A stretch of 64,000 nt of DNA from the NCBI GenBank assembly GCA_016721765.1, contig JADKHO010000004.1, forward strand, positions 288,088 to 352,087, in the 5' to 3' direction. The position numbers and the translations under genes are program-made. The notes beneath the pieces were generated by a model that saw only the letters and a list, made by a program, of their open reading frames with translations, had not been told where the DNA came from and ran no database searches. Positions 1,542-64,000 of this stretch are shown piece by piece; position 1 is the first letter of the stretch; the number at the start of each line of letters is the position of its first letter. Source of the DNA: Bacteroidota bacterium (lineage in GTDB: Bacteria; Bacteroidota; Bacteroidia; UBA4408).

Positions 1542-3068
1542 TTAATCGATTGTCAAAATATCATATCGTTCACTTTTTCCTTTGATCATTTTTAAGTATA
1601 GTCCGTTTTCCTTGTCTTTCATAGCGCTGGGTGATTGTGCAATGTAAAACCAATCAATATCCGGAGCTTCAATTTTATACCTTTTCATTTCACCAGATGA
1701 GGAAATCTCGAGTGCAGCAATTACAGATCCTCTGTGATTATAGATCATATCGTACTTTTCATGGTCATACGCGGGAATTGCATTTCCGGCTTCCTGCATA
1801 TTTTTGGGATGCTCCAGGTAGAAGAGGTAAATCTTATTATCGTGGACTATTTTATTAAATCCATTCAGTGTATTTCTTGTGTTTTTAGGACATGATTTTA
1901 TCCAATCCGCTTTGGTGTCGGGCTGAAATTTATAGATGATTAAATCACGTTCCTTAGTGTAAATAATGCCACCTTCCGCATATTGATAAATGGGCGTTGC
2001 GATCATGTAATAATCCTCGCCAATTTCGATGATATCCCTGATCTTAAAATTTTTGGCATTGGCACATTTCCAATTTGTTCCTTCTGCATAAGCAAGTTTT
2101 TCTTCTACAAGCTTTGGGAAATAGGTGAATTCCTTTGCTACAAGGCTGGATTGGGCATTTATGGTAACAAAAAATGCACCTGTTCTTGGTTCCTCCTCAC
2201 TTTTCTTTATCCTGTAATCTTTGAAAATTCCTGCAAAGGTTATGTTTCCATTTAAGGCATCATGGGTTTGGATTTCATCGATATACCATTTGGGACTAGT
2301 TGCAAGGTTAATGAAAGTTGGAGTATTTGTATCGTTAAAAATTGCAAGAGCGAAGGACCAGCTAGCATCGTTCTCAGTGTTCAGGTAGCGGACCAAGTAG
2401 GTAATTCTGCCAGTGTTGTCAATGTTGAAATTAGAGTTAAAGGCTTCACTTGACTTGTATCTCAAAGGAATTTTTATGGGATTACCTGATTTTTCCATAT
2501 TGATCGGGTTGTATAACTGGATTGACCCAATATAGGGTTTATCGTTAATAACAACAGGTGTTACAATTATCATTTTTGAATGGTCGGGACTAAGGCTCAT
2601 AGAAAAATTCCAGGTCCTCGATCCCATTTTGTCGGTTTTATATTGAGAAACCTCCGTCCATTCTTTCAGCACACTGCCGTCAGTGCCTATTGTTTTCATC
2701 ATCAGTTCAGCTTCCTGTTCCTGCCTGTTATAAATCTTAGCGAACAAATAAATTTTATTACCGGCAAAAAGAGGCGTAAATGGGTATTCATACAACTCAA
2801 TAATTGGGATGTGAAAATCAATGAATTTAGTATCCAGGATCCATAAAGTTTTGAGTGTACTTTTTTCCTGTTTGATAATAAAATAATTTAGGTGATTCAT
2901 TTCTCGAGTCCCGTAACTGTATATATACTTTTCATCTTCGTTAAATTTGAAGGATGCTTTGTGCTCGGGTTCAAGCGCCTGTTCGGTTCCTTTTGTAATA
3001 TGAAATTTCTGCGCATATGCAAAGTGAACAAGCAACAGCAGGATTGTCGTGTAACGGATTTTTTTCAT
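1542..3068 (-). CDS. Secreted hypothetical protein (N-terminal signal peptide)
   Basis: 508 aa ORF with signal peptide MKKIRYTTILLLLVHFAYAQ. No recognisable catalytic motif. Confidence 0.5.
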   Translation of the reverse strand: MKKIRYTTILLLLVHFAYAQKFHITKGTEQALEPEHKASFKFNEDEKYIYSYGTREMNHLNYFIIKQEKSTLKTLWILDTKFIDFHIPIIELYEYPFTPLFAGNKIYLFAKIYNRQEQEAELMMKTIGTDGSVLKEWTEVSQYKTDKMGSRTWNFSMSLSPDHSKMIIVTPVVINDKPYIGSIQLYNPINMEKSGNPIKIPLRYKSSEAFNSNFNIDNTGRITYLVRYLNTENDASWSFALAIFNDTNTPTFINLATSPKWYIDEIQTHDALNGNITFAGIFKDYRIKKSEEEPRTGAFFVTINAQSSLVAKEFTYFPKLVEEKLAYAEGTNWKCANAKNFKIRDIIEIGEDYYMIATPIYQYAEGGIIYTKERDLIIYKFQPDTKADWIKSCPKNTRNTLNGFNKIVHDNKIYLFYLEHPKNMQEAGNAIPAYDHEKYDMIYNHRGSVIAALEISSSGEMKRYKIEAPDIDWFYIAQSPSAMKDKENGLYLKMIKGKSERYDILTID

Positions 3069-3246
3069 GTTGAGTTATAAAAATCGTGTAAATCTAATTT
3101 TTTGCATCAATTTTCAATACGGTATTTCGACTAATGAGAGGCTGGATGAAACCGGATTAGTATTCTGCCAGGGTCACCCTTCTGCGCTTACGTTCAGCTC
3201 TTCGTTAAAATCGCTACTTTTGCCAAACCCTTATCCGGCTTGATAT

Positions 3247-4578
3247 ATGCAACAGGTAGTAACGTATCGGAACATTTGGAAGATATCTTATCCTATTATT
3301 TTAGGAGGCATTGCTCAAACAGTGGTGAATGTCACCGACACCGCTTTCTTGGGGCGAGTGAGTGAAGTGGCATTAGGCGCTTCGGCTATAGCCGGACTTT
3401 TTTACGTTACCGTATTTATGCTCGGATTAGGCTTCAGCATAGGCACTCAAATTATTGTTGCGCGCTATGATGGAGAAAAAAACTTTAAAGAAATTGGGAA
3501 AGTGCTCGATCATTCCATCTATTTTATGTTACCCCTTGCCGTTTTTTTATTTGTTTCTTTAAAAATGCTCAGCCCCTGGCTCCTCTCCTATTTTGTAAAA
3601 TCGCCCGAAGTTTTGGCTTCCAGTATAATTTATATTGATAATCGTTGCTGGGGCATTTTGTTTGCCTTTGTTGGATTGTGTATTCGTTCCTTTTACATCG
3701 GAATTTCTAACACACGAATAGTAATTTATTCTACCTTGATTTCTGCGATATCAAATTTTATCTTGAACTACATATTAGTATTTGGTAAATTTGGATTTGC
3801 ACCAATGGGTATTGCCGGGTCTGCGTTGGCAAGCAGCATATCGGAAGTTATATCACTTTTGTTTGTGATTGGCTATACTTATGTTACCATGAATTTGGAA
3901 AAATATAATTTATTTGGTTTTGCAAAATTTGACGGTGCACGCATCAAAAGCATTTTTACTGTGGCTGCACCATCTATGTTTCAAACTTTTTTCGCAGTTT
4001 GGAGTTGGTTTGTTTTCTTTTTGATTGTTGAAAAAATGGGCGAACGGCCACTCGCTATTTCCAACTTAATTCGAAACATGTATATGATTTTGATGATTCC
4101 TTTGGTTGGATTTAGTTCTGCAACCAATACCTTGGTAAGTAATTTAATTGGACAAGGTCGGCAATCGGAGGTTTTTCTCATGATTAAAAAAATTGCATTC
4201 TTATCCTTTGCATTTACCTTAGCACTTACTTTATTAAACTTGCTCAATCCGCGTATTGCACTTTCGGTTTTTACAAACGATAGCAATTTAATTGAAGCCA
4301 CACTCGGCTCACTTTATGTTATTTGTGGTTCCTTGCTTCTATTTTCGGTAACCGCTGTATTGTTGAGTTCCGTTTCAGGATCAGGAAATACAATGGCTTC
4401 TCTTATAATCGAAACGCTTACTATTGCTTTTTATTTATTGGCAACCTGGTTTGCTGTACAACTCATGCATTGGCCCATCGAATTGGTTTGGTGTGTGGAA
4501 TATGTTTATTTTGCCTTTATGGGGATGCTTTCCGTGTGGTATTTAAAAAAGAAATTGCAACAAAAATTATATGCGTAA
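3247..4578 (+). CDS. MATE family efflux transporter
   Basis: Twelve-TM protein of 443 aa with an N-terminus typical of NorM/MATE (WKISYPIILGGIAQTVVNVTDTAFLGRV). Confidence 0.85.
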   Translation: MQQVVTYRNIWKISYPIILGGIAQTVVNVTDTAFLGRVSEVALGASAIAGLFYVTVFMLGLGFSIGTQIIVARYDGEKNFKEIGKVLDHSIYFMLPLAVFLFVSLKMLSPWLLSYFVKSPEVLASSIIYIDNRCWGILFAFVGLCIRSFYIGISNTRIVIYSTLISAISNFILNYILVFGKFGFAPMGIAGSALASSISEVISLLFVIGYTYVTMNLEKYNLFGFAKFDGARIKSIFTVAAPSMFQTFFAVWSWFVFFLIVEKMGERPLAISNLIRNMYMILMIPLVGFSSATNTLVSNLIGQGRQSEVFLMIKKIAFLSFAFTLALTLLNLLNPRIALSVFTNDSNLIEATLGSLYVICGSLLLFSVTAVLLSSVSGSGNTMASLIIETLTIAFYLLATWFAVQLMHWPIELVWCVEYVYFAFMGMLSVWYLKKKLQQKLYA

Positions 4579-5539
4579 AGATGAGTTAAGAATTGTGTTC
4601 ATGGGTACACCCGACTTTGCGGTTCCATCCTTAGAGATACTTATAAAAAATAAATATAATGTAGTGGGTGTGGTAACTGCTCCTGATAAACCCGCCGGCA
4701 GAGGCTTGCAGATACAAACCTCGGCAGTAAAGAAATTTGCTGTAGAAAATAATCTACATATTCTGCAACCGGAGAAATTGAAATCCGAAACATTTATTCA
4801 GGAACTAAAATCACTGAATGCCAATTTACAAATCGTGGTTGCTTTTAGAATGCTGCCCGAAATGGTATGGCAAATGCCGGAATTGGGAACTTTTAATTTA
4901 CATGGTTCTCTCTTACCTCAATACAGAGGAGCCGCACCTATCAATTGGGCAGTCATGAATGGTGAAAAAGAAACCGGGGTTACCACCTTTTTTCTGCAAC
5001 ACGAAATCGACACCGGGAAAATAATACATAGTGCCAAATGCCCAATAAATGCAGAAGATACAGCCGGAAGTATACACGATAAGTTGATGTTTATTGGAGC
5101 TGATTTAGTTTTAAAAACAGTTGAAGATATTGTATCAGGTGAATACAAAGTTATAGCACAAGATCAACTCTTAGTTGCAGAAAATGGATTAAAAATTGCA
5201 CCAAAAATCCACAAAGCAGATTGTAAAATAAATTGGGATAACAGTTGCGAAAACATTGTAAATAAAGTGCGGGGACTAAATCCTTTTCCTACCGCTTTCG
5301 CAGAATTCAAGCATGATTCAGAGACACTACTATTTAAAATTTTTGAAACAAAAAAAGAACAAACAGCACATGAAATTCCATTTGGACAGCTGGTGAGCGA
5401 CAACAAAAGCTTCTTAAAAGTAGCTGTCAGAGATGGTTTTGTGCAAATAAGCAGTCTGCAGTTGGCCGGAAAGAAACGGATGTCGGTGAGCGATTTCTTG
5501 CGTGGATATCAGTTTTCAGGAACTTGGATTGCAGTTTAA
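4571..5539 (+). CDS. fmt: Methionyl-tRNA formyltransferase
   Basis: Carries IVFMGTPDFAVPSLE and the HGSLLPQYRGAAPINWAV formyltransferase core. Overlaps the upstream gene by 8 nt. Confidence 0.95.
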   Translation: MRKDELRIVFMGTPDFAVPSLEILIKNKYNVVGVVTAPDKPAGRGLQIQTSAVKKFAVENNLHILQPEKLKSETFIQELKSLNANLQIVVAFRMLPEMVWQMPELGTFNLHGSLLPQYRGAAPINWAVMNGEKETGVTTFFLQHEIDTGKIIHSAKCPINAEDTAGSIHDKLMFIGADLVLKTVEDIVSGEYKVIAQDQLLVAENGLKIAPKIHKADCKINWDNSCENIVNKVRGLNPFPTAFAEFKHDSETLLFKIFETKKEQTAHEIPFGQLVSDNKSFLKVAVRDGFVQISSLQLAGKKRMSVSDFLRGYQFSGTWIAV

Positions 5540-5764
5540 CAAAACACAAATCAATTTCCTGAAACACCTTTAAATTCAGTACCTACAGAAGATTGAAAAC
5601 CAGTATTCGCCCTGCACAATGCACGCAGTATAGCTTGTAAAAAACACACTTTCTGTAAGTCAATGGGCATAGTACTTACACCCACAGTTATTAACAAAAA
5701 ATGCGATTTATCAACAAAATTGCATTTTTTCGTGCTACATCCTAGGAGTGTATTGTAATTCCTC

Positions 5765-5772
5765 TAAATTTG
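5765..5772 (+). promoter_or_regulatory. Candidate Bacteroidota sigma-A -7 element (TAAATTTG) upstream of the HU gene
   Basis: Matches the TAnnTTTG consensus about 55 nt upstream of the ATG at 5828. Confidence 0.3.
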
Positions 5773-5827
5773 CTCCTGTTCTAAACAATTAATTATTAAT
5801 TTTTAACCATTTAAAAAACAAATTAAA

Positions 5828-6109
5828 ATGAACAAACAAGAACTAATTGAAGCGATTGCTTCAGAATCAAAATTGACAAAAGCAGATTCTAAAAAAGCTT
5901 TAGACGCATTTATTAACCAAACATCTAAAGCTTTGAAAAAAGGCGACAGAGTTGCGTTAGTAGGATTCGGATCTTTCTCAGTTGCTAAAAGAGAAGCTCG
6001 TAAAGGAAGAAATCCACAAACCGGAAAAGAAATTAAAATTGCAGCTAAAAAAGTTTGCAAATTTAAAGCTGGTTCTGAATTAGCTGATTTAGTGAACAAA
6101 GGAAAATAA
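5828..6109 (+). CDS. hup: HU family DNA-binding protein
   Basis: 93 aa with the GFGSF..ARKGRNPQTGKEIKI HU/IHF signature. Confidence 0.9.
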   Translation: MNKQELIEAIASESKLTKADSKKALDAFINQTSKALKKGDRVALVGFGSFSVAKREARKGRNPQTGKEIKIAAKKVCKFKAGSELADLVNKGK

Positions 6110-53658: not shown

Positions 53659-54927
53659 CTACTCCAGTTCTTTTGTTTCGCTTTCCGAATCGGGCAACTC
53701 TAATAACTTAACCGATTGAATTGCGCTTCCTGCAATTCCTTTGATGGAGGCATGCATGTCGATCGTATTCAGCGTTACCTTTTCAATTTGTTTTTCACGC
53801 TTCTTCCAAATGGCTTGCATGGCTCTTTTTTCACTTTCTAAATCCACCTTCATGGTCGTAAATCCTTCTACAATTGCTTCTACTTGCAAACGAAATGTAT
53901 TCCCGGTAAGGTAGTCATACAACAAATGCATTTTATCGCCCTTGTTTTCTTGCGAAGAAATAGCATTGCTGATTTGTATTATTGATTCTCTCAAAACGGT
54001 ACACAAGCCTTTAAATTCCTCGAAGGAGCAAATCCAAATTCCATCTTTCAAGCCCATCCTATCCATCCCGGCAGGCATGGCGTCGGTAACCAATACGCCA
54101 ATATCAGAGCCTTTGACACGAATATCGCCCTTAAATTTTTCGATCCATCCGGCTTGGAAGTCTTTGGTGCGTTTGCTTTCATAATAGATGGAGCCACAAT
54201 TTTGTCGCAATCGCGTATTAATGTATTGTATGCAATCACCGCCCCTCGCTCCTTTTTTTATTTCCTCGATGGTATCCAATGGAAATTGGGCACTTAGCCA
54301 TTCTTCAATCGCCAACTCCATTACTTCTCCTTGCAGTTGCATAGAGCCTTGCTCCTGCTTGCGTTTCATCTCCTCGGTCAAACGTTTCTGATCTTCCAAC
54401 TGCTTTTGCATTTCCTTGAAACGTAGTTCATTTTTATCTTCCTCTGCCTTTCTTATTTTTTCTTTCTCCTCTATCAAAGTTTGATTGAGCCGTTTTTGGG
54501 CTTCCGCTTCAATTGCTTCTTTCATTTCCAGCTTTTCGCGTTTGAGTTTTTCGATTTCTGCTTTTGTTTTATTGAGTTCGTTTACTTGAAGTGTTTTTTC
54601 ATCCAACTCCTTTTTCATCAAAGCAATACTATCTGCTTGCTCCTCCTTAATTTTCTTTCCTAACTTTTCTTCCAGCAGCTTTTTTTCCTCCTTAATTTTT
54701 GCATCAAAACGCTCCTGAAATATTTCATTTTCCTTTTGTTTTTTTAACTCGAAATCTTGTTTCTCTTTTAACAGGGCAGCGTTTTTCTTTTCAAATTTAT
54801 CCTTCTCTTCATTTAACTGTGAATTAAATTTCTTCTTTAATTCTTCTTCTAATTGATGCGATAAAATATCTTGTACATCAATAGATGTACCGCAGTTGGG
54901 GCATTTTATTTGGGTGTTGTTGGACAT
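53659..54927 (-). CDS. DUF2130 family protein (zinc-ribbon, long coiled coil, C-terminal globular domain)
   Basis: Start MSNNTQIKCPNCGTSIDVQD, typical of DUF2130. The ORF track extends 20 codons further upstream, to 54987. Confidence 0.6.
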   Translation of the reverse strand: MSNNTQIKCPNCGTSIDVQDILSHQLEEELKKKFNSQLNEEKDKFEKKNAALLKEKQDFELKKQKENEIFQERFDAKIKEEKKLLEEKLGKKIKEEQADSIALMKKELDEKTLQVNELNKTKAEIEKLKREKLEMKEAIEAEAQKRLNQTLIEEKEKIRKAEEDKNELRFKEMQKQLEDQKRLTEEMKRKQEQGSMQLQGEVMELAIEEWLSAQFPLDTIEEIKKGARGGDCIQYINTRLRQNCGSIYYESKRTKDFQAGWIEKFKGDIRVKGSDIGVLVTDAMPAGMDRMGLKDGIWICSFEEFKGLCTVLRESIIQISNAISSQENKGDKMHLLYDYLTGNTFRLQVEAIVEGFTTMKVDLESEKRAMQAIWKKREKQIEKVTLNTIDMHASIKGIAGSAIQSVKLLELPDSESETKELE

Positions 54928-55102
54928 GACGTAACTGATTCTAAACTGGCGATTAAAATATTGGAATGATGTTGCTAAAATTAGCAATAAATCAACTCAT
55001 GACATGCAGCTCAGCTATTTTTAGTTGTTCATTTTAAATTTAAATACGTCCAATCAGAATCATGAAATCTTTCCCAAACAATCCTATATTTGAAAAAACA
55101 AA

Positions 55103-57376
55103 TTGAAAGTGACTGCGATTTTCAGGTTTTCTCTTTTTATAATAATACTCCTGGCATTTATCGCTAAATGCCAAGCTCAATTGCGCTATCAACCGCAGCG
55201 CATCGAAACGGATATTAAACTCGACGGCAAACTTACTGAACCCGAATGGGAATTGGCGACTCCGCTTAGTGATTTCATGCAAACATCACCATTACCCGGT
55301 GCCAATGCTACTGAACGAACCGAAGTGAAATTGCTTTATAACAACAGTTATCTCTGTGTAGGATTTCATTGTTATGATAGTGCAGCTTCCCAACTGGTGC
55401 GCTTTTTTATGGACCGTGATTTTCAATTGGGTAAAGATGATGGCATTTCAGTTCAACTAGATACCTATAACGATAAAAACACAGCAGTTGTATTTGTTAC
55501 CAATACCCTCAGCGCACGCTTCGATTCAGAAATTTCGGGCAATGGCGACAATATGAATGACGATTACAATAACTTTTGGGATGTAATGTCGGTGGTGGAT
55601 AGCAGCGGCTACACAGCTGAATTCAGGATTCCATTTTCCTCCTTACGCTTCGAGCAAAAGGAAAAAACAATTATGGGTTTTCGCTTTGCGCGATTAATTC
55701 GAAGAAAAAATGAACTCATTACTTATCCGCCTTGTGATTCCTCCCTTAAAAACAAATGGAACAATGTGAGCCAGGAAGCGGAATTAGAGTTTTTTAATCT
55801 TAAAACCAAAAAGCCAATCTACATTACTCCTTATGTAATTAGCAATTACGAGCAAATTAGTAAACTCAATGCAACACAAACGGATTACAATACAAGCTCC
55901 ACTTTTTTTACGCGAAAAAACTACCTGCACAACGAAACACTGGATAAAATTATTAGCAATTTGGGTGCCGATGTAAAGTATGGGATCACCAAAAATTTCA
56001 CGCTCAACCTCACGGTAAATACTGATTTTGCTCAAGCGGAAGCAGACAATCGGATTATAAATCTCAGTAAATATTCCATCAACCTACCGGAAAAAAGAAA
56101 TTTCTTTTTAGAATCGCAAAACTATTTGAATTATCAAGTAGGATACAATACACAAATTTTTAATTCCCGCCGAATTGGCCTCGAAAACCGTAGTGTTGTG
56201 CCAATCATTGGCGGAGTGCGCATTACCGGTAAAAAAAATGGATGGACAATTGGCGCTTTAAATATGCAAACCGCCGGAGTAAAGGAAAAAACAATACATC
56301 CCGAAAATTTTAGCGTGGCACGCCTTCGAAAATTCTACGATAACAAAGGCAGTTTTTGGGGAGGCATTATTACCAATCGCATTTCTACTGCACAGGATAA
56401 AGTTTCCAATCAAAGTGCCGGTATTGATTTGGTACATAAGTTTAACGACAAGTGGTCGGCCGGATTTGGTGTAGTTTCTACTTACGATACGGCTGTGAAA
56501 TCAAGCTTTGACAAAAACACCTTTATTAATTTGTTTGCATTTAAAAACGCAGGGCAAGGATTTACGCATGGACTGGATGTAGAAATTGTAGGTAAAAAAT
56601 TTAATCCCTCCATGGGTTTTAATCCGGAATCAGATTACGGATTTGTATCCCTTTCAAATGGACGCATTATGCGCATTAAAGGAGAACACGAAGTTAATTT
56701 CTGGAGCCTTAACTCCACTGTAGAATACCGCTGGAAATTGGAATCGGAATTAACGGAAACAAAATTTGCAAACTTGAACGGAAATATTCAATGGAAAAAG
56801 GGCTCTTCCATAACTGTTACACCCTTTTCATATAAAGAAGACCGGCTTTTTGACGATTGGCAATTAAGCGACCATATATTGGTGCCGCATGGTTATTATT
56901 ACATGTATGGTGCCGATGCCAATTTTTTATATGATGAATCCAAAAGTTACACATTTGAATTTAGTACCGGATACAGCAATTTTTACGGTGGAAATTTGTT
57001 CACCGCTAATCCTTCTGCTAATTATATTGTCAATCGCTTCATTCGTGTGGGTGCGAATTACGAGTTTAATGAAATTATATTTCCCAAAACATTTTCCGAC
57101 AATGAAAACGGAATCTATAAAAGCAATTTAATTGCACTAAATCTAACACTTACCCAATCAAGTAAATTCTCCATAAAATTGCTGGCACAATACGACGATA
57201 ATAGTGATTCCTTTGGTGGCAACCTCCGTTTTCGTTACAATCCGCGCGAAGGAACTGATTTGTTTATTGTTTACAATTCCTTACTCAATACACAACGCTT
57301 AGAAGCGAAGCCCACACAACCATTGGTAGATCAGCAAACCATAGTGGTAAAATATTCCTTTACGTTTGGATTATAG
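55103..57376 (+). CDS. DUF5916/CBM9-like domain outer-membrane-associated protein (TTG start)
   Basis: Signal peptide, then IKLDGKLTEPEW...YLCVGFHCYD (carbohydrate-binding family 9-like), and a long beta-rich C-terminal region ending in an aromatic residue. Confidence 0.5.
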   Translation: MKVTAIFRFSLFIIILLAFIAKCQAQLRYQPQRIETDIKLDGKLTEPEWELATPLSDFMQTSPLPGANATERTEVKLLYNNSYLCVGFHCYDSAASQLVRFFMDRDFQLGKDDGISVQLDTYNDKNTAVVFVTNTLSARFDSEISGNGDNMNDDYNNFWDVMSVVDSSGYTAEFRIPFSSLRFEQKEKTIMGFRFARLIRRKNELITYPPCDSSLKNKWNNVSQEAELEFFNLKTKKPIYITPYVISNYEQISKLNATQTDYNTSSTFFTRKNYLHNETLDKIISNLGADVKYGITKNFTLNLTVNTDFAQAEADNRIINLSKYSINLPEKRNFFLESQNYLNYQVGYNTQIFNSRRIGLENRSVVPIIGGVRITGKKNGWTIGALNMQTAGVKEKTIHPENFSVARLRKFYDNKGSFWGGIITNRISTAQDKVSNQSAGIDLVHKFNDKWSAGFGVVSTYDTAVKSSFDKNTFINLFAFKNAGQGFTHGLDVEIVGKKFNPSMGFNPESDYGFVSLSNGRIMRIKGEHEVNFWSLNSTVEYRWKLESELTETKFANLNGNIQWKKGSSITVTPFSYKEDRLFDDWQLSDHILVPHGYYYMYGADANFLYDESKSYTFEFSTGYSNFYGGNLFTANPSANYIVNRFIRVGANYEFNEIIFPKTFSDNENGIYKSNLIALNLTLTQSSKFSIKLLAQYDDNSDSFGGNLRFRYNPREGTDLFIVYNSLLNTQRLEAKPTQPLVDQQTIVVKYSFTFGL

Positions 57377-57472: not shown

Positions 57473-58786
57473 ATGAAAAAAATCTTACTTCTAAGTTTCT
57501 TCTTCTTTATACAGCAATTGTCTGCTTTTGCACAAGTTTCTTCACCAGCATTAATAGGCTATTGGCACAATTGGAACGATGTGAATGCACCTTATATTCA
57601 ACTCGATCAAATTGATTCGCGCTACACTGTAATTGAAGTTGCCTTTGCAGTACCTACTTCTCCTTCAGACATGACCATGCTTTTTACTCCGGATGGAATT
57701 TCACAAAGTAACTTTATTACAAAAGTTCAAAGCCTTCAAAATCAAGGTAAAAAAGTGTTGATTAGCATTGGTGGGGCAACTACAAGTATTGATTTAACAA
57801 GCCTTGCAAACAAAAACGCATTTATTTCTTCCATGACTAGCATTATCACAACTTATGGTTTTGATGGTATGGATATCGACATAGAAAATGGTAATTCCAT
57901 TTTAAATAGTGGTGGAACCATCGCCGCTCCAAGCAATGTGGCACAATTGAATTTAATTGCCGCCATACAGCAAATCATGACTAATTTTCGTACCAACCAT
58001 CAAAAAAAAATGCTGCTCACCATGGCTCCCGAAACCGCTTATGTACTTGGTGGTCAATCGGCTTTCGGCGGCATTTGGGGCGGATACTTGCCCATTATTG
58101 ATGCCTTGCGCGATTCGCTCGATATTCTTCAAGTACAACTATACAACAGTGGCTCCATGTATGGAATTGACGGCGGAATTTATACACAAGGAACAGCCGA
58201 TTTTATTGTAGCGATGACAGAAGCTTCAGTACATGGATTTGCAACAAGCGGTGGGTATTTCACTGGCATACCCGCTTCAAAAATTTCAGTTGGATTGCCG
58301 GCTTGCGCTAACGCTGCGGGCGGCGGTTTTGCTGATACTTTAATTGTAGCATCCGCTTTGAACTACCTTAAAGGACAAGGTCCAAAACCCGGTAATTACA
58401 CACTTTCACAAAGTAGTGGCTATCCAACATTATTGGGAATGATGACTTGGTCAATAAATTGGGATGCTATGAGCAATTGCAGCAGCAGCTATGCTTATGC
58501 TCAAAATTTTGAAAATATATTTTTAAACGCAAACGCTGCACCGGCAGCACAGTTTCCTTCTGCACACTTATCTGTGTATCCCAATCCTGCACAAACATCA
58601 ATCTCAATAAAATACACCGGAGAAATTAAATCTAAGACATACGCAACAGTCTATACTATTGTTGGAACAAGATTATTATCAAGCGAAATGAGTACTGAAA
58701 ACTCTAGTATCTCCATTGCTGATTTGCCGGCTGGAATATATTTATTGAAGTTTCAGAACACCTTTTGTCGCTTTGCAAAATATTAA
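57473..58786 (+). CDS. Glycoside hydrolase family 18 (chitinase-like) with T9SS C-terminal sorting domain
   Basis: GH18 catalytic motif FDGMDIDIEN and a C-terminal LSVYPNPAQTSISIKY...GIYLLKF. Confidence 0.8.
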   Translation: MKKILLLSFFFFIQQLSAFAQVSSPALIGYWHNWNDVNAPYIQLDQIDSRYTVIEVAFAVPTSPSDMTMLFTPDGISQSNFITKVQSLQNQGKKVLISIGGATTSIDLTSLANKNAFISSMTSIITTYGFDGMDIDIENGNSILNSGGTIAAPSNVAQLNLIAAIQQIMTNFRTNHQKKMLLTMAPETAYVLGGQSAFGGIWGGYLPIIDALRDSLDILQVQLYNSGSMYGIDGGIYTQGTADFIVAMTEASVHGFATSGGYFTGIPASKISVGLPACANAAGGGFADTLIVASALNYLKGQGPKPGNYTLSQSSGYPTLLGMMTWSINWDAMSNCSSSYAYAQNFENIFLNANAAPAAQFPSAHLSVYPNPAQTSISIKYTGEIKSKTYATVYTIVGTRLLSSEMSTENSSISIADLPAGIYLLKFQNTFCRFAKY

Positions 58787-58912: not shown

Positions 58913-59788
58913 ATGGAAGTTCCAAAAGGAAAATTAATTTCGGTGGGGGGGAATGAAGACAAAGGAACTGAGGCGGAACCAAATTTTACGCCCAAGGAAA
59001 AACTGAACTTCTTTGAAGAAGGTATTTTAAAGCGCATCCTTTCGGAGATGAAAGGAAAAGATTCCACAGTTGAAGTGATTACTACCGCTTCTATGATTCC
59101 TGTTGAAGTAGGCGAAAATTACATTGATGCATTCGGAAAACTCGGTTGTAAAAATATAGGTGTTATGCATATCCGTAAGCGGGAAGATGCTTTGCTGCCT
59201 GAGTACATTGAGCGCATACGCAAATGCGATGGCGTGATGTTTACAGGTGGCAATCAAATGCGCCTGAGTATGATTTTTGGCGGTACCGAATTTTTAAATG
59301 TAATTACCGAGCGCTATCAAAATGAAAATTTTGTCATTGCAGGAACCAGTGCAGGTGCCATGGCCATGAGCAATACCATGATTTATCAGGGCAGCAGCAC
59401 GGAAGCCATGCGCAAAGGCGAAGTTAAAATTACTACCGGTTTAGCTTTTATAAAGGATGTTATCATTGATTCACATTTTGTAAAACGCGGTAGGTTCGGG
59501 CGTTTGGCCGAAGCTGTTGCCGGTAATCCGGGATGTATTGGTATTGGCTTAGGTGAAGATACCGGAGTGTTGGTGAAAGAAGGAAATAAAATGGAAGCCA
59601 TTGGTTCCGGCTTGGTGTTGATATTTGATGGACACGATATTCGTCATTCCAATATTGCAGATGCAGAGCAAGGCACACCTCTATCTATCGAAAACATGAT
59701 TGTACATGTTTTGGCAAAAGGAAATTTTTACCATTTAAAAGAACGAAAGTTTTTTGCAGAAACACCTGAAAAGCTGGAAAAAGCATAA
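58913..59788 (+). CDS. Cyanophycinase (peptidase S51)
   Basis: Carries LISVGGNEDKG..., the GVMFTGGNQMRL stretch and the nucleophile region AGTSAGAMAMS. Confidence 0.8.
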   Translation: MEVPKGKLISVGGNEDKGTEAEPNFTPKEKLNFFEEGILKRILSEMKGKDSTVEVITTASMIPVEVGENYIDAFGKLGCKNIGVMHIRKREDALLPEYIERIRKCDGVMFTGGNQMRLSMIFGGTEFLNVITERYQNENFVIAGTSAGAMAMSNTMIYQGSSTEAMRKGEVKITTGLAFIKDVIIDSHFVKRGRFGRLAEAVAGNPGCIGIGLGEDTGVLVKEGNKMEAIGSGLVLIFDGHDIRHSNIADAEQGTPLSIENMIVHVLAKGNFYHLKERKFFAETPEKLEKA

Positions 59789-59882: not shown

Positions 59883-61445
59883 CTATTTTCGAAAATCGTT
59901 ATGGAGGTAAACCCGTGTGGCAGCAAATGTTGTATCCAAATGGTAATGAGAAGGAACATTACTGTTATATGCAGCTAAAGCATCTTTCATAAAATATTCA
60001 TTTGAGCCGGTGGCTATTGTATCGCATGGACAATTCTTTTCGAATATAATAGCTTGGTTTCCGCTTGTATATAAAGTGATTCCATACTCCAAAAGAAAAT
60101 CAAACTTTAAATCCGCATCCGATTTTAAAGCCGGAAAGGGTTCGTATTTATTGCCAACCACAATGTACTTATTTGCAACATAGGTGGATAAATCTATACC
60201 AATCTTCTTTACTCCCTTTTGCAACAAATACTCCATTGCCTGTTCTCCCCCCTTTTTCACATTTTGATAATTGCTATTATTCTCACGATTTGCTAATGAG
60301 CGCGCATCGTTAGCAAATGTTAGTGCTTGTGGCAACATACATGCGAAAATCACGAGTGAAACTAATTTGAGTTGTTTCTTCACTACACCCTCTAATAAAG
60401 CAGCACCGGCAATTGTCGAAAGACATACTCCCACAAACATATAATGTGGCCAAATACGTTTCGTTAAAATAAAAATGAGCAGCAATTGCACCAAACCCAA
60501 GCCTAATAATAAATGCGCATTGGAAATTTTTTTACATTTTATTAAATAATAGATAGCAAGTGCTGCAAGTCCGAGTATTGCAATGCTGATAATTATGGAG
60601 TGAATAGCGTAATACTCATGCAGCAATTTATTCATCCAGGTTAAGCCATTTATACTTTTATCATCATAGGATTTTGTTGCCGAACCAAATGCTTGAGAAA
60701 TATACGACTGCAAAAACAGGCGCTTTACCGGTGCCAGAAACAAACAAGGAATGCACAATAAGAAACCCAGCAAAGTGTAGAGCACCGAAATAGAAAACTC
60801 CTTTATTTTTAGTGCAAATCGAAATTTTTGTTCCGAATAAAAAAGAGGAAGTACAAAAAGTATAGGTATTAATGGAAGCACAGAAATTTTACATCCATAA
60901 GCGAAACCTAACCAAATAAAGTGCCTTCCAAAAGACCAATTGTTCTTGATAAATCCGCGCAGAAACAAGGCTAAAAAAAGCAATACAAAAGGTTCAGGTT
61001 TGGGAATAAAACTAAAGTAGATAAAATAAGGTGAAACTAAAATAAAAACCAAAGTCATCAGCCGCAGCAAGGCATCCTTAATAAAAAGTGTAATCAACAA
61101 ATGAATAGAGAGCAGTAATACAAAAAAATGGCAAAGTCGTGTTGCCATTACCTGCCCTTCGATGCCCCAAATTTTGTCGGGAATAAACGATACGAGCGCA
61201 TCTGTCCACATCATCACCCTGCCATAAAATAAAGTGCTCCCGCTAATTACCGAAAACACAAAATGCTTGGCATCACCTGGATGCAAAAGTGCATTCACAT
61301 CGAGCAAAGCAATACGCTCATCAAATTGACTGTATTTATCTCCAACGTAACTAGTACCCGATTTGCATGCTGAAGTGTAATAAAATGCAAACCCAATCGA
61401 AATAATGATTGCAATTCCATATCCTATTTTATAGAACTTATCCAT
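59883..61445 (-). CDS. GT-C fold (PMT/ArnT-like, family 39/83-type) polytopic membrane glycosyltransferase
   Basis: About 11 TM segments, a DE motif in the first loop (QFDERIAL), and a ~130 aa C-terminal soluble domain. It overlaps the upstream GT2 gene. Confidence 0.5.
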   Translation of the reverse strand: MDKFYKIGYGIAIIISIGFAFYYTSACKSGTSYVGDKYSQFDERIALLDVNALLHPGDAKHFVFSVISGSTLFYGRVMMWTDALVSFIPDKIWGIEGQVMATRLCHFFVLLLSIHLLITLFIKDALLRLMTLVFILVSPYFIYFSFIPKPEPFVLLFLALFLRGFIKNNWSFGRHFIWLGFAYGCKISVLPLIPILFVLPLFYSEQKFRFALKIKEFSISVLYTLLGFLLCIPCLFLAPVKRLFLQSYISQAFGSATKSYDDKSINGLTWMNKLLHEYYAIHSIIISIAILGLAALAIYYLIKCKKISNAHLLLGLGLVQLLLIFILTKRIWPHYMFVGVCLSTIAGAALLEGVVKKQLKLVSLVIFACMLPQALTFANDARSLANRENNSNYQNVKKGGEQAMEYLLQKGVKKIGIDLSTYVANKYIVVGNKYEPFPALKSDADLKFDFLLEYGITLYTSGNQAIIFEKNCPCDTIATGSNEYFMKDALAAYNSNVPSHYHLDTTFAATRVYLHNDFRK

Positions 61446-62163
61446 GCTTTAATTTTTTGCGCATTTCAAATACATAAGCAAAAATTCGCTTGATTAATTT
61501 TATGCGCGTTTTTACACTAGAACCGCTGCCTCCCTTTGCTTCTCCAAACTGACGCGGCAAAAAGAAAACAGGAATTTCCAATATGCTTCCTTGCTTTTTG
61601 GCGTGGTATAAAAAATATAAATCAAATGAAAAATCCTTCGGACAGTCAGACTTAATTCTTTCGTAAAAAGCACGCGAAAACAATTTTGGTTGTGCATTAA
61701 TTTCGGTCAATCGTGTCCCCAAAGCCATGGATGACAATACCCCCATTCCCCATGAAAAAAATGCTTCACTAACTCTTCTGTTTTTTCGAAATCCTTTCAC
61801 TAAAACAGGTGTTGGTGTTGAACTTTTATATACTTCCCAAGCGCGTATTACATCTTTGGGATCGGTTTGCAAATCGGCATGTGTCCACGACAACATGGGG
61901 GCCGTAGCTTGCTCTAAGCCACTATTAATACCAAAACCATATCCCAGGTTTTTTACCACATGCACCAATTTAAAATTTTTTTCTGGACGGCTTTTCAGTT
62001 GCTCTTCAAATACTTCAGCTGAATTATCAGTACTCCCATTATCCACCAAAATAATTTCCACATCTTTATGTTTGGCCAACAATTCATCAAATTGAGCAAA
62101 GATGTGCGGCAGATTTAATACCTCATTGTAACAAGGTACAACAATCGATAGCTGAGCGGCCAT
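61438..62163 (-). CDS. GT2 polyprenyl-phosphate glycosyltransferase (DPM1/ArnC/GtrB-like)
   Basis: LSIVVPCYNE ... ILVDNGSTDNS ... D.D-type core, at 241 aa. Confidence 0.8.
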   Translation of the reverse strand: MAAQLSIVVPCYNEVLNLPHIFAQFDELLAKHKDVEIILVDNGSTDNSAEVFEEQLKSRPEKNFKLVHVVKNLGYGFGINSGLEQATAPMLSWTHADLQTDPKDVIRAWEVYKSSTPTPVLVKGFRKNRRVSEAFFSWGMGVLSSMALGTRLTEINAQPKLFSRAFYERIKSDCPKDFSFDLYFLYHAKKQGSILEIPVFFLPRQFGEAKGGSGSSVKTRIKLIKRIFAYVFEMRKKLKHG

Positions 62164-62939
62164 TAGTATTTCTTTTTATACGGGTGAAATGGCATATCGC
62201 TAAAAAAATCTTCCCAATAGTTAAATGTTTCATAATCATCCGGAACACCCCAACCAATATAGTGCTTGAGCTCAAACACTTTTGCTTTGAATCCCATCTC
62301 AATTAAATCGGTGAAACATTCATCCACATAAAACTCGTTATTTATTCTGCGGTTTTGAGCAATCATACGCTCCGCAGCTTCCACAAAATATTTACCCTTC
62401 TTAAACCAAAAAGCCCCCACCAAAGCATGATTGTTCATGGGATCGGGCATGTCGTGTTTTACCAACATTTTAGTGATGACATTATTCTCATCCACTTTTG
62501 TCCAGCCATGCGCTTTCGGATTTGCTAAAACTATCGGGTTGTTGCGGAAAGTAAAGATGATAGCATCGCATTCGCTTTTTACTTTTTCAAATTCGGCGGT
62601 ATCGTAAACCATACCATTATCGCTTGCTCCAATGGTTAACTCTTCATCGTTGTTGATTAATTCCTTTGCCAACAAACAGGTACTGGCTTGACCTTCGGTT
62701 AGTCCTGTTACTGTTACAATTTGGCAATCCGGCAATTGTTCCTTCAATGCTTTGTCTATTGCATATTCCTGAATGTGTTCGGTGCGGACCACAAAAATGG
62801 GTTTACCTTTTCCGGGCAACATGTTGTAGGCAGATATTACCATTGGTTTGCCAAATACCGGCAAAAGTGGTTTGGGAGTTGTGTATCCTTTAATGGCAAA
62901 GCGACTTCCTGCGCCGGCCATGGGTATAAGTGTTATCAT
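62163..62939 (-). CDS. Nucleotidyltransferase-like protein (sugar/alcohol-phosphate NTP-transferase fold), paralog A
   Basis: N-terminal IPMAGAGSRF..KPL glycine-rich NTP-transferase motif. Confidence 0.5.
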   Translation of the reverse strand: MITLIPMAGAGSRFAIKGYTTPKPLLPVFGKPMVISAYNMLPGKGKPIFVVRTEHIQEYAIDKALKEQLPDCQIVTVTGLTEGQASTCLLAKELINNDEELTIGASDNGMVYDTAEFEKVKSECDAIIFTFRNNPIVLANPKAHGWTKVDENNVITKMLVKHDMPDPMNNHALVGAFWFKKGKYFVEAAERMIAQNRRINNEFYVDECFTDLIEMGFKAKVFELKHYIGWGVPDDYETFNYWEDFFSDMPFHPYKKKY

Positions 62940-63706
62940 TTTGCTAGTTCAATAAAAATATCCGACCATTGTTTATATTCTCCCATATCTGATGGAGTTC
63001 CCCACTGACAAAAATGAGGCACATCGCTATACACCACTGTTTTTAAGCCATCGCGATACATAAGGTTGTATACCAGACTCACAAAATATTCGTCATACAT
63101 GGTAATTTTTTTCTCCATTAACTCTGTAAAATATTTTTTCACATCGCTGCCGCGTTTGAAATAGTAAGTACCAACTGAATGATAATCTTTTGTTTTATCG
63201 GGCACATAAGAATGCTTTTCGCGAATTTCAGTCATTAAATGATTTTCATCCAATTTACACACCGCGTATAAATTATGCGGATGCAGCAAATGCGGGTGAA
63301 ATCCGGTATAGCAAACGATGCTTCCATCGCAATCCGTTTGAATCATTTTATTTCTGAAATGATTGTAATCCCATTGCATAAAAAAATCACAGTAATTATA
63401 AATTACGGGCTCATCGTCTTTCAATAAATGAAAGGCCTTTGTGGCGGTATGCACCGGGCCTAATTTATGCGGTTCGCAAGGAACAATGGTTGCATTGGGG
63501 CGCACACGCATGAGCGTTTCCGCGATGTCGGTTGTTTCGAGCAAATCGGTTCGTACAATAAATATAAGCTCATCGTCACCGGGAAACATGTTCACCACGT
63601 GCTGAATCACCGGCATTCCGTTTTGAATAATAAGTGGTTTATAGGTGGTGTAACCGGCTTTAATAAAGCGGCTCCCCTGCCCACTCATCGGGATAATTAT
63701 TTTCAT
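62936..63706 (-). CDS. Nucleotidyltransferase-like protein, paralog B
   Basis: N-terminal IIPMSGQGSRF..KPL, about 30-35% identity to paralog A by eye, and an ATGA overlap with A. Confidence 0.5.
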   Translation of the reverse strand: MKIIIPMSGQGSRFIKAGYTTYKPLIIQNGMPVIQHVVNMFPGDDELIFIVRTDLLETTDIAETLMRVRPNATIVPCEPHKLGPVHTATKAFHLLKDDEPVIYNYCDFFMQWDYNHFRNKMIQTDCDGSIVCYTGFHPHLLHPHNLYAVCKLDENHLMTEIREKHSYVPDKTKDYHSVGTYYFKRGSDVKKYFTELMEKKITMYDEYFVSLVYNLMYRDGLKTVVYSDVPHFCQWGTPSDMGEYKQWSDIFIELAK

Positions 63707-63786
63707 ATGAATTTAAATTGTTTTTATGACCAAAAGGAATGCACAAGTTATACTCATTAATTGGTTTGACATCACCTTAGTGCATT

Positions 63787-64000
63787 TCATCTGTTTTTTA
63801 AAATTGAAATTAATAGTTCGGGATAATCTGTATAAAATCGCTTAATGTTTAAATTCAAATATTCGTGCATCGCGGCAGCATCGTTAATTACAATAGCTCC
63901 AACATCAATTCCATGTGCTTGTAATTTTTTAATTTTTTCCGGATTCAAGGCTTGCCATACAAACATCAAGGCTGTAAAGTTAAATTCCTTTCCGATATAA
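63787..64000 (-). CDS. Glycerophosphodiester phosphodiesterase family protein (C-terminal part; gene continues beyond window)
   Basis: C-terminal GDPD motif FYTDYPELL and HGIDVGAIVIND. Confidence 0.5.
   Translation of the reverse strand, partial: YIGKEFNFTALMFVWQALNPEKIKKLQAHGIDVGAIVINDAAAMHEYLNLNIKRFYTDYPELLISILKNR

Follow-up and report, generated by a model that had tools for sequence, protein, structure and literature searches.

In the GtrA/GtrB/GtrC systems for O-antigen glucosylation of Shigella and Salmonella phages and in the CsbB/GtcA/YfhO systems of Firmicutes, a family-2 glycosyltransferase (GT2) charges undecaprenyl phosphate with a sugar and a polytopic GT-C enzyme carries out the transfer outside. 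A GtrA-family protein is the presumed flippase. The Gtr systems draw on housekeeping UDP-glucose and encode no donor synthesis. The overall logic, from NDP-sugar to polyprenyl-P-sugar and then GT-C transfer, is already known. The locus analyzed here has similar glycosyltransferases but adds a donor-synthesis module of five to six enzymes, of which no description was found in the searchable literature. Its relatives carry GtrA, whereas the locus itself has none, and it has two GT-C proteins, one of them fused to a kinase. Compared with ArnC/ArnT (undecaprenyl-P-L-Ara4N, lipid A), PpgS/Rv3779 and FlmF/FlmK, it has no Arn-type dehydrogenase, transaminase or formyltransferase genes, and its donor would come from a pentulose phosphate rather than from UDP-GlcA.

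The genes lie at the end of the window (the whole 64,000-nucleotide stretch analyzed), where an earlier note had described a minus-strand cassette of four overlapping genes flanked by a glycerophosphodiester phosphodiesterase (GDPD). The four open reading frames and their coordinates were confirmed, with overlaps of 8, 1 and 4 nt at the M520/GT2, GT2/NTase B and NTase B/NTase A junctions, respectively. The last 70 codons of the GDPD gene follow (63787..64000, minus strand, frame 63787-63999), and this gene runs off the window. A public contig, L001, matches the window over 5000 nt with 0 mismatches and extends the operon by about 3.3 kb beyond the window end, through GDPD, a GT-C/phosphoribulokinase fusion and a HAD phosphatase. 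The cassette is therefore not a four-gene unit. Its genes are the downstream part of a seven-gene operon, in the order HAD phosphatase, GT-C/phosphoribulokinase fusion, GDPD, NTase A, NTase B, GT2 and GT-C, with intergenic gaps of at most 80 nt in addition to the three overlaps.

We consider it probable that this is a self-contained lipid-carrier glycosylation operon with its own donor-sugar pathway, starting from ribulose 5-phosphate (Ru5P). The reading of the earlier note, a system built like ArnC/ArnT or GtrB/GtrC that has activation enzymes of its own, is the best one because the GT2 (61438..62163, minus strand, 241 aa) is nearest to ArnC, GtrB and DPMS. It matches PF00535 (E 1.6e-19, 70.9 bits for a cutoff of 23.3), and its best PDB sequence matches are ArnC (4.8e-12, residues 4-211), GtrB sll0501 (7.6e-10) and P. 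furiosus DPMS (3.1e-8). These closest solved relatives are all polyprenyl-phosphate glycosyltransferases, which is consistent with the type previously assigned to this protein. Its score against the ArnC equivalog model was 49.5 bits, for a cutoff of 529. A search for transmembrane (TM) segments found no hydrophobic segment in the 241 residues; the protein is close to GtrB in sequence but the C-terminal TM hairpin of GtrB and ArnC is absent. In this respect, the predicted soluble GT2 resembles the DPM1/PpgS subtype. The motif H95-A-D97-L-Q99 is conserved in 73 homologues, with an invariant His replacing the first Asp of the usual D-A-D-L-Q. The H-A-D-L-Q motif and the missing C-terminal helices were both counted against the proposed pathway.

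The last gene of the operon, M520 (59883..61445, minus strand, 520 aa), encodes about 11-13 hydrophobic helices with a polytopic GT-C fold. An FDER motif follows TM1, and all six of the closest homologues retain its D42 and E43. In the structural model, TM1 (H2-24) is followed by the first loop helix (H41-54), whose N-terminal end carries D42-E43. This places conserved acidic residues in the predicted first extracytoplasmic loop, as is usual in GT-C enzymes. This agrees with the GT-C protein with a DE loop that had been recognized at this position. None of six members of the family matched a Pfam or NCBIfam model, even at E 0.1, including the described GT-C families (PMT, PMT_2, GT87, ALG, YfhO etc.), and no PDB sequence matched M520 at E 10. 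M520 thus defines a GT-C family without a Pfam model. It would catalyse the last step, in which the sugar passes from polyprenyl-P-sugar to an acceptor in the envelope. By comparison, members of the N-domain family of the kinase fusion match GT87, ALG6/8 and ALG3.

NTase A (62936..63706, minus strand, 256 aa) and NTase B (62163..62939, minus strand, 258 aa) both have the sugar-phosphate nucleotidyltransferase fold (GT-A-like Rossmann) and both begin with IPM(S/A)G(Q/A)GSRF. They share 31% identity over their full length (BLASTP E 2e-40) and are therefore true paralogs rather than chance look-alikes. Their earlier description as tandem nucleotidyltransferases fits their Pfam assignments, which lie marginally above the gathering thresholds: 24.8 bits for NTase B with PF00483 (cutoff 21.2), 28.9 and 22.9 bits for NTase A with PF12804 (cutoff 27) and PF00483 (cutoff 21.2). 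The 258-aa start of NTase B retains the conserved ITLIPMAG beta-strand. No NCBIfam equivalog among RmlA, GalU, GlmU, HddC, MurU and IPCT scored above its cutoff. The best was rmlA_long, with 48 bits for a cutoff of 320 (NTase B, E 7.9e-13 but far under the equivalog level), and the others gave 15-34 bits for cutoffs of 250-600. NTase B also aligned with PDB 4EVW ('nucleoside-diphosphate-sugar pyrophosphorylase', Vibrio cholerae RC9, structural genomics) over residues 4-239 (E 1.3e-8), at only 23% identity. This entry is not known to have an assigned function or substrate, and hence no function was transferred from it.

A tandem paralog pair, often fused, with structural neighbours that include GMPPB and eIF2B subunits, could be a heteromer in which one NTase is catalytic and the other regulatory or scaffolding; GMPPA/GMPPB, ADP-glucose pyrophosphorylase and eIF2B gamma/epsilon are heteromers of this kind. 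Activation would then take a single step, and the phosphodiesterase would serve salvage or repair. We consider this unlikely, since both paralogs keep the active-site residues. The nucleotide-binding signature G-x-G-[ST]-R...K reads MSGQGSRF...YK in NTase A and MAGAGSRF...PK in NTase B, and at least 93% of 79 NTase A and 69 NTase B homologues retain G9, G11, R13 and K23. The same holds for D107 and the K161/K164 position (K161 in NTase B). Degenerate regulatory subunits usually do not keep such residues. NTase A and NTase B occur as a single polypeptide in more than 4300 database proteins, on plasmids and in cyanophages, which argues that the two act together; stand-alone NTase A homologues number more than 600.

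The part of the operon outside the window contains the kinase and the phosphatase. The PRK domain of the fusion matches PF00485 (E 3.7e-37, 128.5 bits for a cutoff of 22) and is closer to the NCBIfam phosphoribulokinase model (3.6e-56) than to uridine kinase (2.7e-21), but its 190.7 bits against NF005655 are under the equivalog cutoff of 236. Its best PDB match is a cyanobacterial PRK (E 7.5e-39; identity about 40-45% by eye). The motifs DDxH...R, YxH and KxxRDxxxR are conserved; we take them to correspond to the R. sphaeroides PRK residues onto which they were mapped. For the HAD phosphatase, ribulose-1,5-bisphosphate 5-phosphatase was the best NCBIfam model in 11 of 11 members from different phyla (1e-56 at best, against 2e-36 for the next family), with a score of 172, below the equivalog cutoff of 330. 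The fusion of PRK to a GT-C domain is left without explanation by the proposed pathway.

The full GDPD (246 aa, L001 6614-7354) matches PF03009 (E 3.5e-26, 93.2 bits for a cutoff of 23.6) and has the catalytic motifs AAHRGN, IELDIQ and VVTHD. No signal peptide was found, and the protein begins at the catalytic AAHRGN; judging from its sequence, it is a cytoplasmic GDPD-family phosphodiesterase. Its position upstream of the cassette, previously seen as a flank, was confirmed. It is more than a flank: in L003, in L004 and in 13 of the 80 loci of the genome scan (L006-L085) it immediately precedes NTase A, and it is thus conserved with the cassette.

Among these 80 genomic loci, NTase A was found in 76, NTase B in 70, GT2 in 70, the kinase fusion in 65, the aldolase-like protein in 58, the PLC-like protein in 55 and HAD in 53. 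The order NTase A-NTase B-GT2 recurs in about 70 of these independent loci, in many phyla and far beyond chance. The three genes are accompanied by the kinase fusion, HAD, a class II aldolase-like protein (weakly matching ribulose-1-phosphate aldolase, 2e-4), a short PLC/GDPD-like phosphodiesterase and often GtrA (about 19 loci overall, with annotated GtrA-family genes in the E. coli and Azospirillum plasmid versions). The range covers Bacteroidota, Proteobacteria (including an E. coli IncR plasmid, Brucella pecoris, Acetobacter and Legionella sainthelensi), Firmicutes, Leptospira, CPR bacteria, a Nanoarchaeota MAG and cultured cyanophages. The plasmids of E. coli and Azospirillum encode the NTases as a fusion, as do cyanophages S-SM2 and Bellamy, in which the module lies beside GT61, without lipid-carrier genes. 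Viral contigs carry the fused NTases with aldolase-like, HAD-like, PLC-like and sometimes PRK proteins, adjoining a Leloir GT61 with no GT2 or GT-C; this argues that the product of the module is a glycosyl donor. The window clade has no aldolase-like gene, no GtrA (tblastn of the window and L001 gave no homologue; E above 0.2) and no short PLC-like gene, for which GDPD appears to stand in. These absences, and the PRK and HAD scores below equivalog cutoffs, were counted against the proposed pathway.

The presence of GDPD had suggested a glycerophospho or phospho-alcohol moiety. The NTases would then make a CDP- or NDP-alcohol phosphate, as LicC, TarI, IspD and PntC do (NDP-1-ribulose, pentitol phosphate or glycerol phosphate), the phospho-moiety would be added to an envelope polymer, and a glycerophosphodiester would be provided or trimmed by GDPD. 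This found no support and seems quite unlikely: the conserved set is without any CDP-alcohol phosphotransferase, LicD, TagF or Stealth-type transferase, its transferases are all glycosyltransferases (Pren-P-type GT2 and GT-C in cells, GT61 in phages), and GtrA co-occurs.

It is very unlikely that the locus is an ordinary Gtr- or Arn-type modification with a common sugar, in which divergent RmlA/GalU/ManC-type NTases make a standard NDP-hexose and the kinase, HAD and GDPD are unrelated. NTase scores of 16-48 bits are far from the cutoffs of 250-600, and PRK, HAD, aldolase-like and PLC-like genes are syntenic with the NTases in 53-65 of the 80 loci, as well as on plasmids and in phages. In addition, NTase A keeps 46-61% identity between phyla, and two motifs peculiar to it, YTGFHPHL and NYCDF, are invariant, which points to a distinct, conserved specificity. 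A catabolic or salvage role, in which PRK, HAD and the aldolase-like protein would form the non-carboxylating route from RuBP through Ru1P to DHAP and glycolaldehyde as in haloarchaea, beside glycan genes by chance, is hardly credible despite the haloarchaeal RuBP 5-phosphatase as nearest HAD relative and the weak aldolase match, given that PRK is physically fused to a GT-C domain, the NTases to each other and once to GtrA (P0373), that the set is embedded in phage glycan islands and that the window clade has no aldolase.

Returning to the glycosylation operon with its own donor pathway, we infer the enzymatic steps, their order, the sugar and the acceptor as follows. PRK would convert ribulose 5-phosphate to ribulose 1,5-bisphosphate, from which HAD would cleave the 5-phosphate, leaving ribulose 1-phosphate. 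The two NTases, acting jointly with the GDPD/PLC-type phosphodiesterase, would turn this into an NDP-sugar. The soluble GT2 would then load the sugar onto polyprenyl phosphate at the inner membrane face and, after flipping, the GT-C enzymes (M520 and the N-domain of the kinase fusion) would pass it to an envelope acceptor. In ribulose 1-phosphate, the phosphate is on C1, whereas the anomeric carbon is C2. A glycosyl donor could therefore not arise from one ordinary NTase step, and the roles of the second NTase and the phosphodiesterase are thus conjecture.

The kinase, phosphatase and nucleotidyltransferase logic would be that of GDP-D-glycero-alpha-D-manno-heptose synthesis (HddA, the HAD phosphatase GmhB, HddC). 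However, the present kinase has a PRK/uridine kinase P-loop and is not of the GHMP type, the substrate would be a pentulose rather than a heptose, and the set is larger by another NTase, a phosphodiesterase and, in most cases, an enzyme of the class II aldolase fold. The similarity to the haloarchaeal pentose bisphosphate pathway lies in the HAD, nearest to the RuBP 5-phosphatase model, and in the class II aldolase-fold enzyme that follows in most phyla. That pathway is catabolic and starts from nucleosides, whereas here RuBP would come from PRK and the products would feed NTases and glycosyltransferases. In one subclade of Bacteroidota, GDPD, NTase A, NTase B, GT2 and M520 occur with no PRK or HAD within 5-9 kb, so the Ru5P route may not be obligatory.

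Identifying the product would enlarge the known repertoire by a new nucleotide sugar, assign a role to thousands of entries now annotated as "NTP transferase domain", "uridine kinase" or "class II aldolase", and explain PRK outside carbon fixation. Acid-labile surface residues, for example ketofuranoses, might be accounted for as well. It is rather doubtful, though conceivable, that the module (PRK, the RuBP-5-phosphatase-like HAD, sometimes a class II aldolase-fold epimerase, NTases A/B and the PLC/GDPD phosphodiesterase) would make an NDP-pent-2-ulofuranose from ribulose 5-phosphate by a previously unrecognised nucleotide-sugar pathway. Pent-2-ulose as the sugar is a speculative guess, and one test of it gave no support. 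In the window clade, which lacks the aldolase, the sugar would be ribulose; where the aldolase-fold enzyme is present and epimerises Ru1P, it would be xylulose. A 1,2-cyclic phosphate would be the intermediate through which the first NTase and the phosphodiesterase shift the phosphate from C1 to the anomeric C2. Activation of the C2-phosphorylated sugar by the second NTase would follow. If true, this would supply the missing genes for reported Xulf residues. For those of E. coli O95 and O97 and of Yersinia enterocolitica O:10, genes for activated-donor synthesis were not reported (PMC7685785, PMC11380512). Xulf residues have also been reported in C. jejuni RM1221, Eubacterium saburreum, Devosia submarina and chlorovirus glycans.

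The four open reading frames that the earlier note had placed on the minus strand at the window end were all found there, overlapping by 8, 1 and 4 nt. They encode M520, a 520-aa GT-C-type membrane protein (59883-61445), a family-2 glycosyltransferase of 241 aa (GT2, 61438-62163) and two nucleotidyltransferase-fold proteins, NTase B (62163-62939, 258 aa) and NTase A (62936-63706, 256 aa). Upstream on the same strand, the last 70 codons of a glycerophosphodiester phosphodiesterase (GDPD) occupy 63787-63999, and this gene runs past the window end. Searching with the NTase A protein, we found a public contig of 12.2 kb (L001) that is identical to the terminal 5000 nt of the window (0 mismatches) and extends upstream. 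Along transcription, L001 carries the genes for a HAD phosphatase-family protein (212 aa), a 696-aa fusion protein, GDPD (246 aa), NTase A, NTase B, GT2 and M520, where gaps of 44, about 24 and 80 nt precede the three overlaps. Because of this continuation, the short gaps and overlaps, and the divergent upstream and convergent downstream neighbors, the locus is most likely a seven-gene operon, the distal 4.3 genes of which lie inside the window. The lipid-carrier glycosylation logic proposed in the earlier note was retained, but its four-gene boundaries gave way to the upstream genes on L001, and its reading of GDPD as the hint of a phospho-alcohol or glycerophospho moiety was abandoned. Scanning the operon for promoters and terminators gave the same counts as shuffled sequence; as the sigma-70 consensus used is moreover unsuitable for Bacteroidota, these counts carry no information.

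GT2 matches PF00535 (1.6e-19), lacks a transmembrane (TM) segment and has a conserved H-A-D-L-Q motif. Its best solved relatives, ArnC, GtrB and an archaeal DPMS, are all polyprenyl-phosphate glycosyltransferases. M520 found no match in Pfam, NCBIfam or PDB sequence searches, and its family is small (6 matches by word search, 361 by exhaustive profile search). Residues D42-E43 are invariant and stand where the first loop helix behind TM1 begins, the canonical GT-C catalytic position. The idea that M520 might instead ligate or polymerise O-antigen was rejected, as all strong structural matches are GT-C glycosyltransferases.

The two NTases are indeed tandem paralogs, both starting with the IPMxGxGSRF motif and sharing 31% identity over their full length (E 2e-40). 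Both pass Pfam nucleotidyltransferase thresholds only marginally, fall far under all NCBIfam equivalog cutoffs, and match 4EVW, an unassigned structural-genomics entry, at about 1e-8. Since the nucleotide-binding and catalytic residues are conserved in both (G9, G11, R13, K23, D107 and K161/K164, kept in at least 93% of 69-79 homologues), both paralogs look catalytically competent. More than 600 homologues share over 50% identity with NTase A. A family in which NTase A and B are fused has more than 4300 members, with 79-99% identity among the top 120, and occurs in Legionella sainthelensi.

The fusion protein (L001 4499-6589, about 0.5-2.6 kb past the window end in the same operon) joins a GT-C-like polytopic N-domain, whose family members match the GT-C families GT87, ALG6/8 and ALG3, to a C-terminal kinase domain. 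The latter scores far better as a phosphoribulokinase (PRK, 3.6e-56) than as a uridine kinase (2.7e-21). Among solved structures, its closest match is a cyanobacterial PRK (7.5e-39), and the PRK motifs DDxH..R, YxH and KxxRDxxxR are conserved in its family. On one viral contig (L162), the PRK domain is fused instead to a soluble DUF7796-like domain. For the HAD protein, the best NCBIfam model is the haloarchaeal ribulose-1,5-bisphosphate 5-phosphatase in 11 of 11 members from different phyla, and this model leads the next family by 20 orders of magnitude.

The distribution of the system was assayed by a scan of one genome per species, which found 294 loci, the best 80 of which were examined. 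These 80 come from Bacteroidota, Melainabacteria, CPR phyla, Nitrospirae, Leptospira, Lachnospiraceae, Oscillospiraceae, a Nanoarchaeota MAG and Alpha- and Gammaproteobacteria (Brucella pecoris, Acetobacter, Aureimonas, Martelella). NTase A was present in 76 loci, NTase B and GT2 in 70 each, and the fusion of PRK to a GT-C-like domain, kept across phyla, in 65. A class II aldolase-fold protein (PF00596) was detected in 58, a short PI-PLC/GDPD-like protein of about 190 aa in 55 and HAD in 53. M520 was found in 21 loci, all from Bacteroidota, full-length GDPD in 13 and a GtrA-like protein in 19, which is an undercount. Some Bacteroidota loci have a small ORF (c20) located between HAD and the fusion, the sequence of which does not resemble GtrA. 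One Bacteroidota subclade is reduced to GDPD, NTase A, NTase B, GT2 and, in some cases, M520, with unrelated genes upstream. In Proteobacteria and other loci devoid of M520, one or two large proteins of 590-730 aa follow the cluster (L052 12232-15967, L076 12924-15113, L067 13419-15218 and, on an E. coli plasmid, L086 13224-14984). Judged from their N-terminal sequence, those of L052, L067 and L076 appear to be polytopic membrane proteins. The large proteins may take the part of M520 as acceptor transferases specific to their taxa.

GDPD is complete on L001 and has no signal peptide. Comparison with the short PLC-like family by hhalign was weak (probability 36%, E 3.8e-4), although the catalytic motifs align; the two may plausibly be homologous within the PLC-like superfamily. 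Across the 80 loci, full-length GDPD never occurs alongside the aldolase-like gene, and it occurs with the short PLC-like gene only once (L007). In L007, a 112-aa ORF beside HAD (5523-5858) aligns with the short PLC-like protein only in the C-terminal half of the latter and lacks the catalytic N-terminal motifs; it looks like the decaying remnant of a displaced PLC-like gene. No aldolase-like, GtrA or short PLC-like gene was found elsewhere in the 64-kb window. Since the two phosphodiesterases nearly exclude each other and their catalytic motifs align, GDPD appears to have displaced the short PLC-like enzyme in the clade of the window, while the aldolase-like gene and GtrA appear to have been lost from the locus.

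The whole system is also carried by the E. coli IncR plasmid p5-S1-CAM-01-A (cluster at NZ_CP145712.1 6022-14984; plasmid of 33 kb, non-mobilizable) and by an Azospirillum brasilense plasmid (NZ_CP032350.1). The cluster is present in 2 of 5426 complete E. coli genomes. RefSeq annotates NTase A and B on the plasmids as one NTP transferase domain protein of 540-556 aa, and the other products as GtrA family, GT2, PI-PLC/GDPD family, uridine kinase / phosphoribulokinase, HAD and class II aldolase. Moreover, an IMG/VR scan revealed 165 viral contigs with NTase A relatives. Their conserved block comprises a fused NTase A-B, a GT61 glycosyltransferase (PF04577), a class II aldolase-fold protein, small HAD-like and PLC-like proteins and sometimes PRK; GT2, GT-C and GtrA are absent from it. 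In the cultured T4-like cyanophages S-SM2 (NC_015279.1, about 154113-158172) and Bellamy, this block is part of a glycan-gene island that spans about 17 kb, and it comprises fused NTase A-B, GT61, the aldolase-fold protein, the small PLC-like protein and a small HAD-like protein annotated as 'phosphoheptose isomerase'. Therefore, the donor module (PRK, HAD, aldolase-fold protein, NTases and phosphodiesterase) is separable from the lipid-carrier module (GT2, GT-C and GtrA). In phages the donor module would feed Leloir glycosyltransferases directly. This speaks for a glycosyl donor (NDP-sugar), and against a CDP-alcohol, as the product of the module.

The best-supported pathway leads from ribulose 5-phosphate (Ru5P) through an NDP-sugar and a polyprenyl-phosphate sugar to an envelope acceptor; we infer its chemistry throughout from the observed families, folds, motifs, synteny and fusions. 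PRK would convert Ru5P to ribulose 1,5-bisphosphate, from which HAD would remove the 5-phosphate to give ribulose 1-phosphate (Ru1P). The same kinase, phosphatase and nucleotidyltransferase logic is used by HddA, GmhB and HddC. NTase A, NTase B and the phosphodiesterase would then form the NDP-sugar, GT2 would transfer the sugar to polyprenyl phosphate and, after flipping, the GT-C proteins would pass it to the acceptor. The analogy of AraD, RhaD and MtnB suggests that the aldolase-fold enzyme could act on Ru1P as an epimerase, with a xylulose 1-phosphate as the product. The weak point of this pathway lies in Ru1P, whose phosphate sits on C1, adjacent to the anomeric C2, and not on C2. That two NTases and a PLC-type phosphodiesterase are constantly present suggests activation in two stages. 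One speculative route would run from an NDP-1-ketose through a 1,2-cyclic phosphate and a ketose-2-phosphate to an NDP-2-ketose; as an equally speculative alternative, the phosphodiesterase would have a repair role.

A pentulose donor as the product is unlikely on present evidence. Xylulofuranose (Xulf) occurs in E. coli O95 and O97, C. jejuni RM1221, Eubacterium saburreum, Devosia submarina and chlorovirus N-glycans, and L-Xulf in Y. enterocolitica O:10 (PMC7685785, PMC8707391, PMC11380512, PMC9614988). A review on E. coli reports that the O-antigen clusters lack genes for its nucleotide precursor, and the O:10 cluster as described has none either (PMC7685785, PMC11380512). Some carriers of the module (Lachnospiraceae, Hyphomicrobiales, E. 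coli) overlap with the taxa having Xulf. The plasmid-bearing E. coli S1-CAM-01-A has an O35-type wzx/wzy O-antigen locus and not the ABC-transporter O95/O97 loci, which gives the pentulose link no support, yet does not refute it. Because this serotype test was negative, the pentulose reading is not our main claim.

In its mode of action the system resembles Gtr, Arn, CsbB-YfhO and PpgS-Rv3779, but it is a member of none, and none of these has the donor module found here. GtrA is absent at the window locus, unlike in Gtr; GT2 lacks the TM hairpin of GtrB and ArnC; M520 belongs to no described GT-C family; and the proteins stay below all equivalog thresholds. Full-text literature searches on PRK/NTase/GT combinations, GtrA-aldolase-kinase, pent-2-uloses and Ru1P/Xu1P NTases returned no description of the module. 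A known kind of lipid-carrier glycosylation is probably backed here by a widespread, uncharacterised sugar-activation pathway.

Upstream on L001, divergent from the operon start, are minus-strand genes for the prolipoprotein diacylglyceryl transferase Lgt (2540-3694, Pfam match beginning at residue 117) and an inositol-monophosphatase-family protein (1693-2490), as well as an OMP gene. The first two also flank the operon in a related locus (L003). Downstream, a plus-strand Peptidase_S51 gene (cyanophycinase/dipeptidase E-like, window 58913-59788) converges with the cassette. Next to it is a plus-strand gene (57473-58786) for a GH18 chitinase or endo-beta-N-acetylglucosaminidase-like protein, whose T9SS C-terminal sorting domain (Por_Secre_tail) supports the Bacteroidota origin of the window. 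Just upstream of the GH18 gene, 55103-57376 (plus strand) encodes a protein of 757 aa in which CBM9-like and DUF5916 domains are combined. Finally, a minus-strand gene (53659-54987) encodes a DUF2130 protein, the N-terminal half of which is long, coiled-coil-like and rich in Lys/Glu; both this neighbor and Peptidase_S51 are kept in L003.
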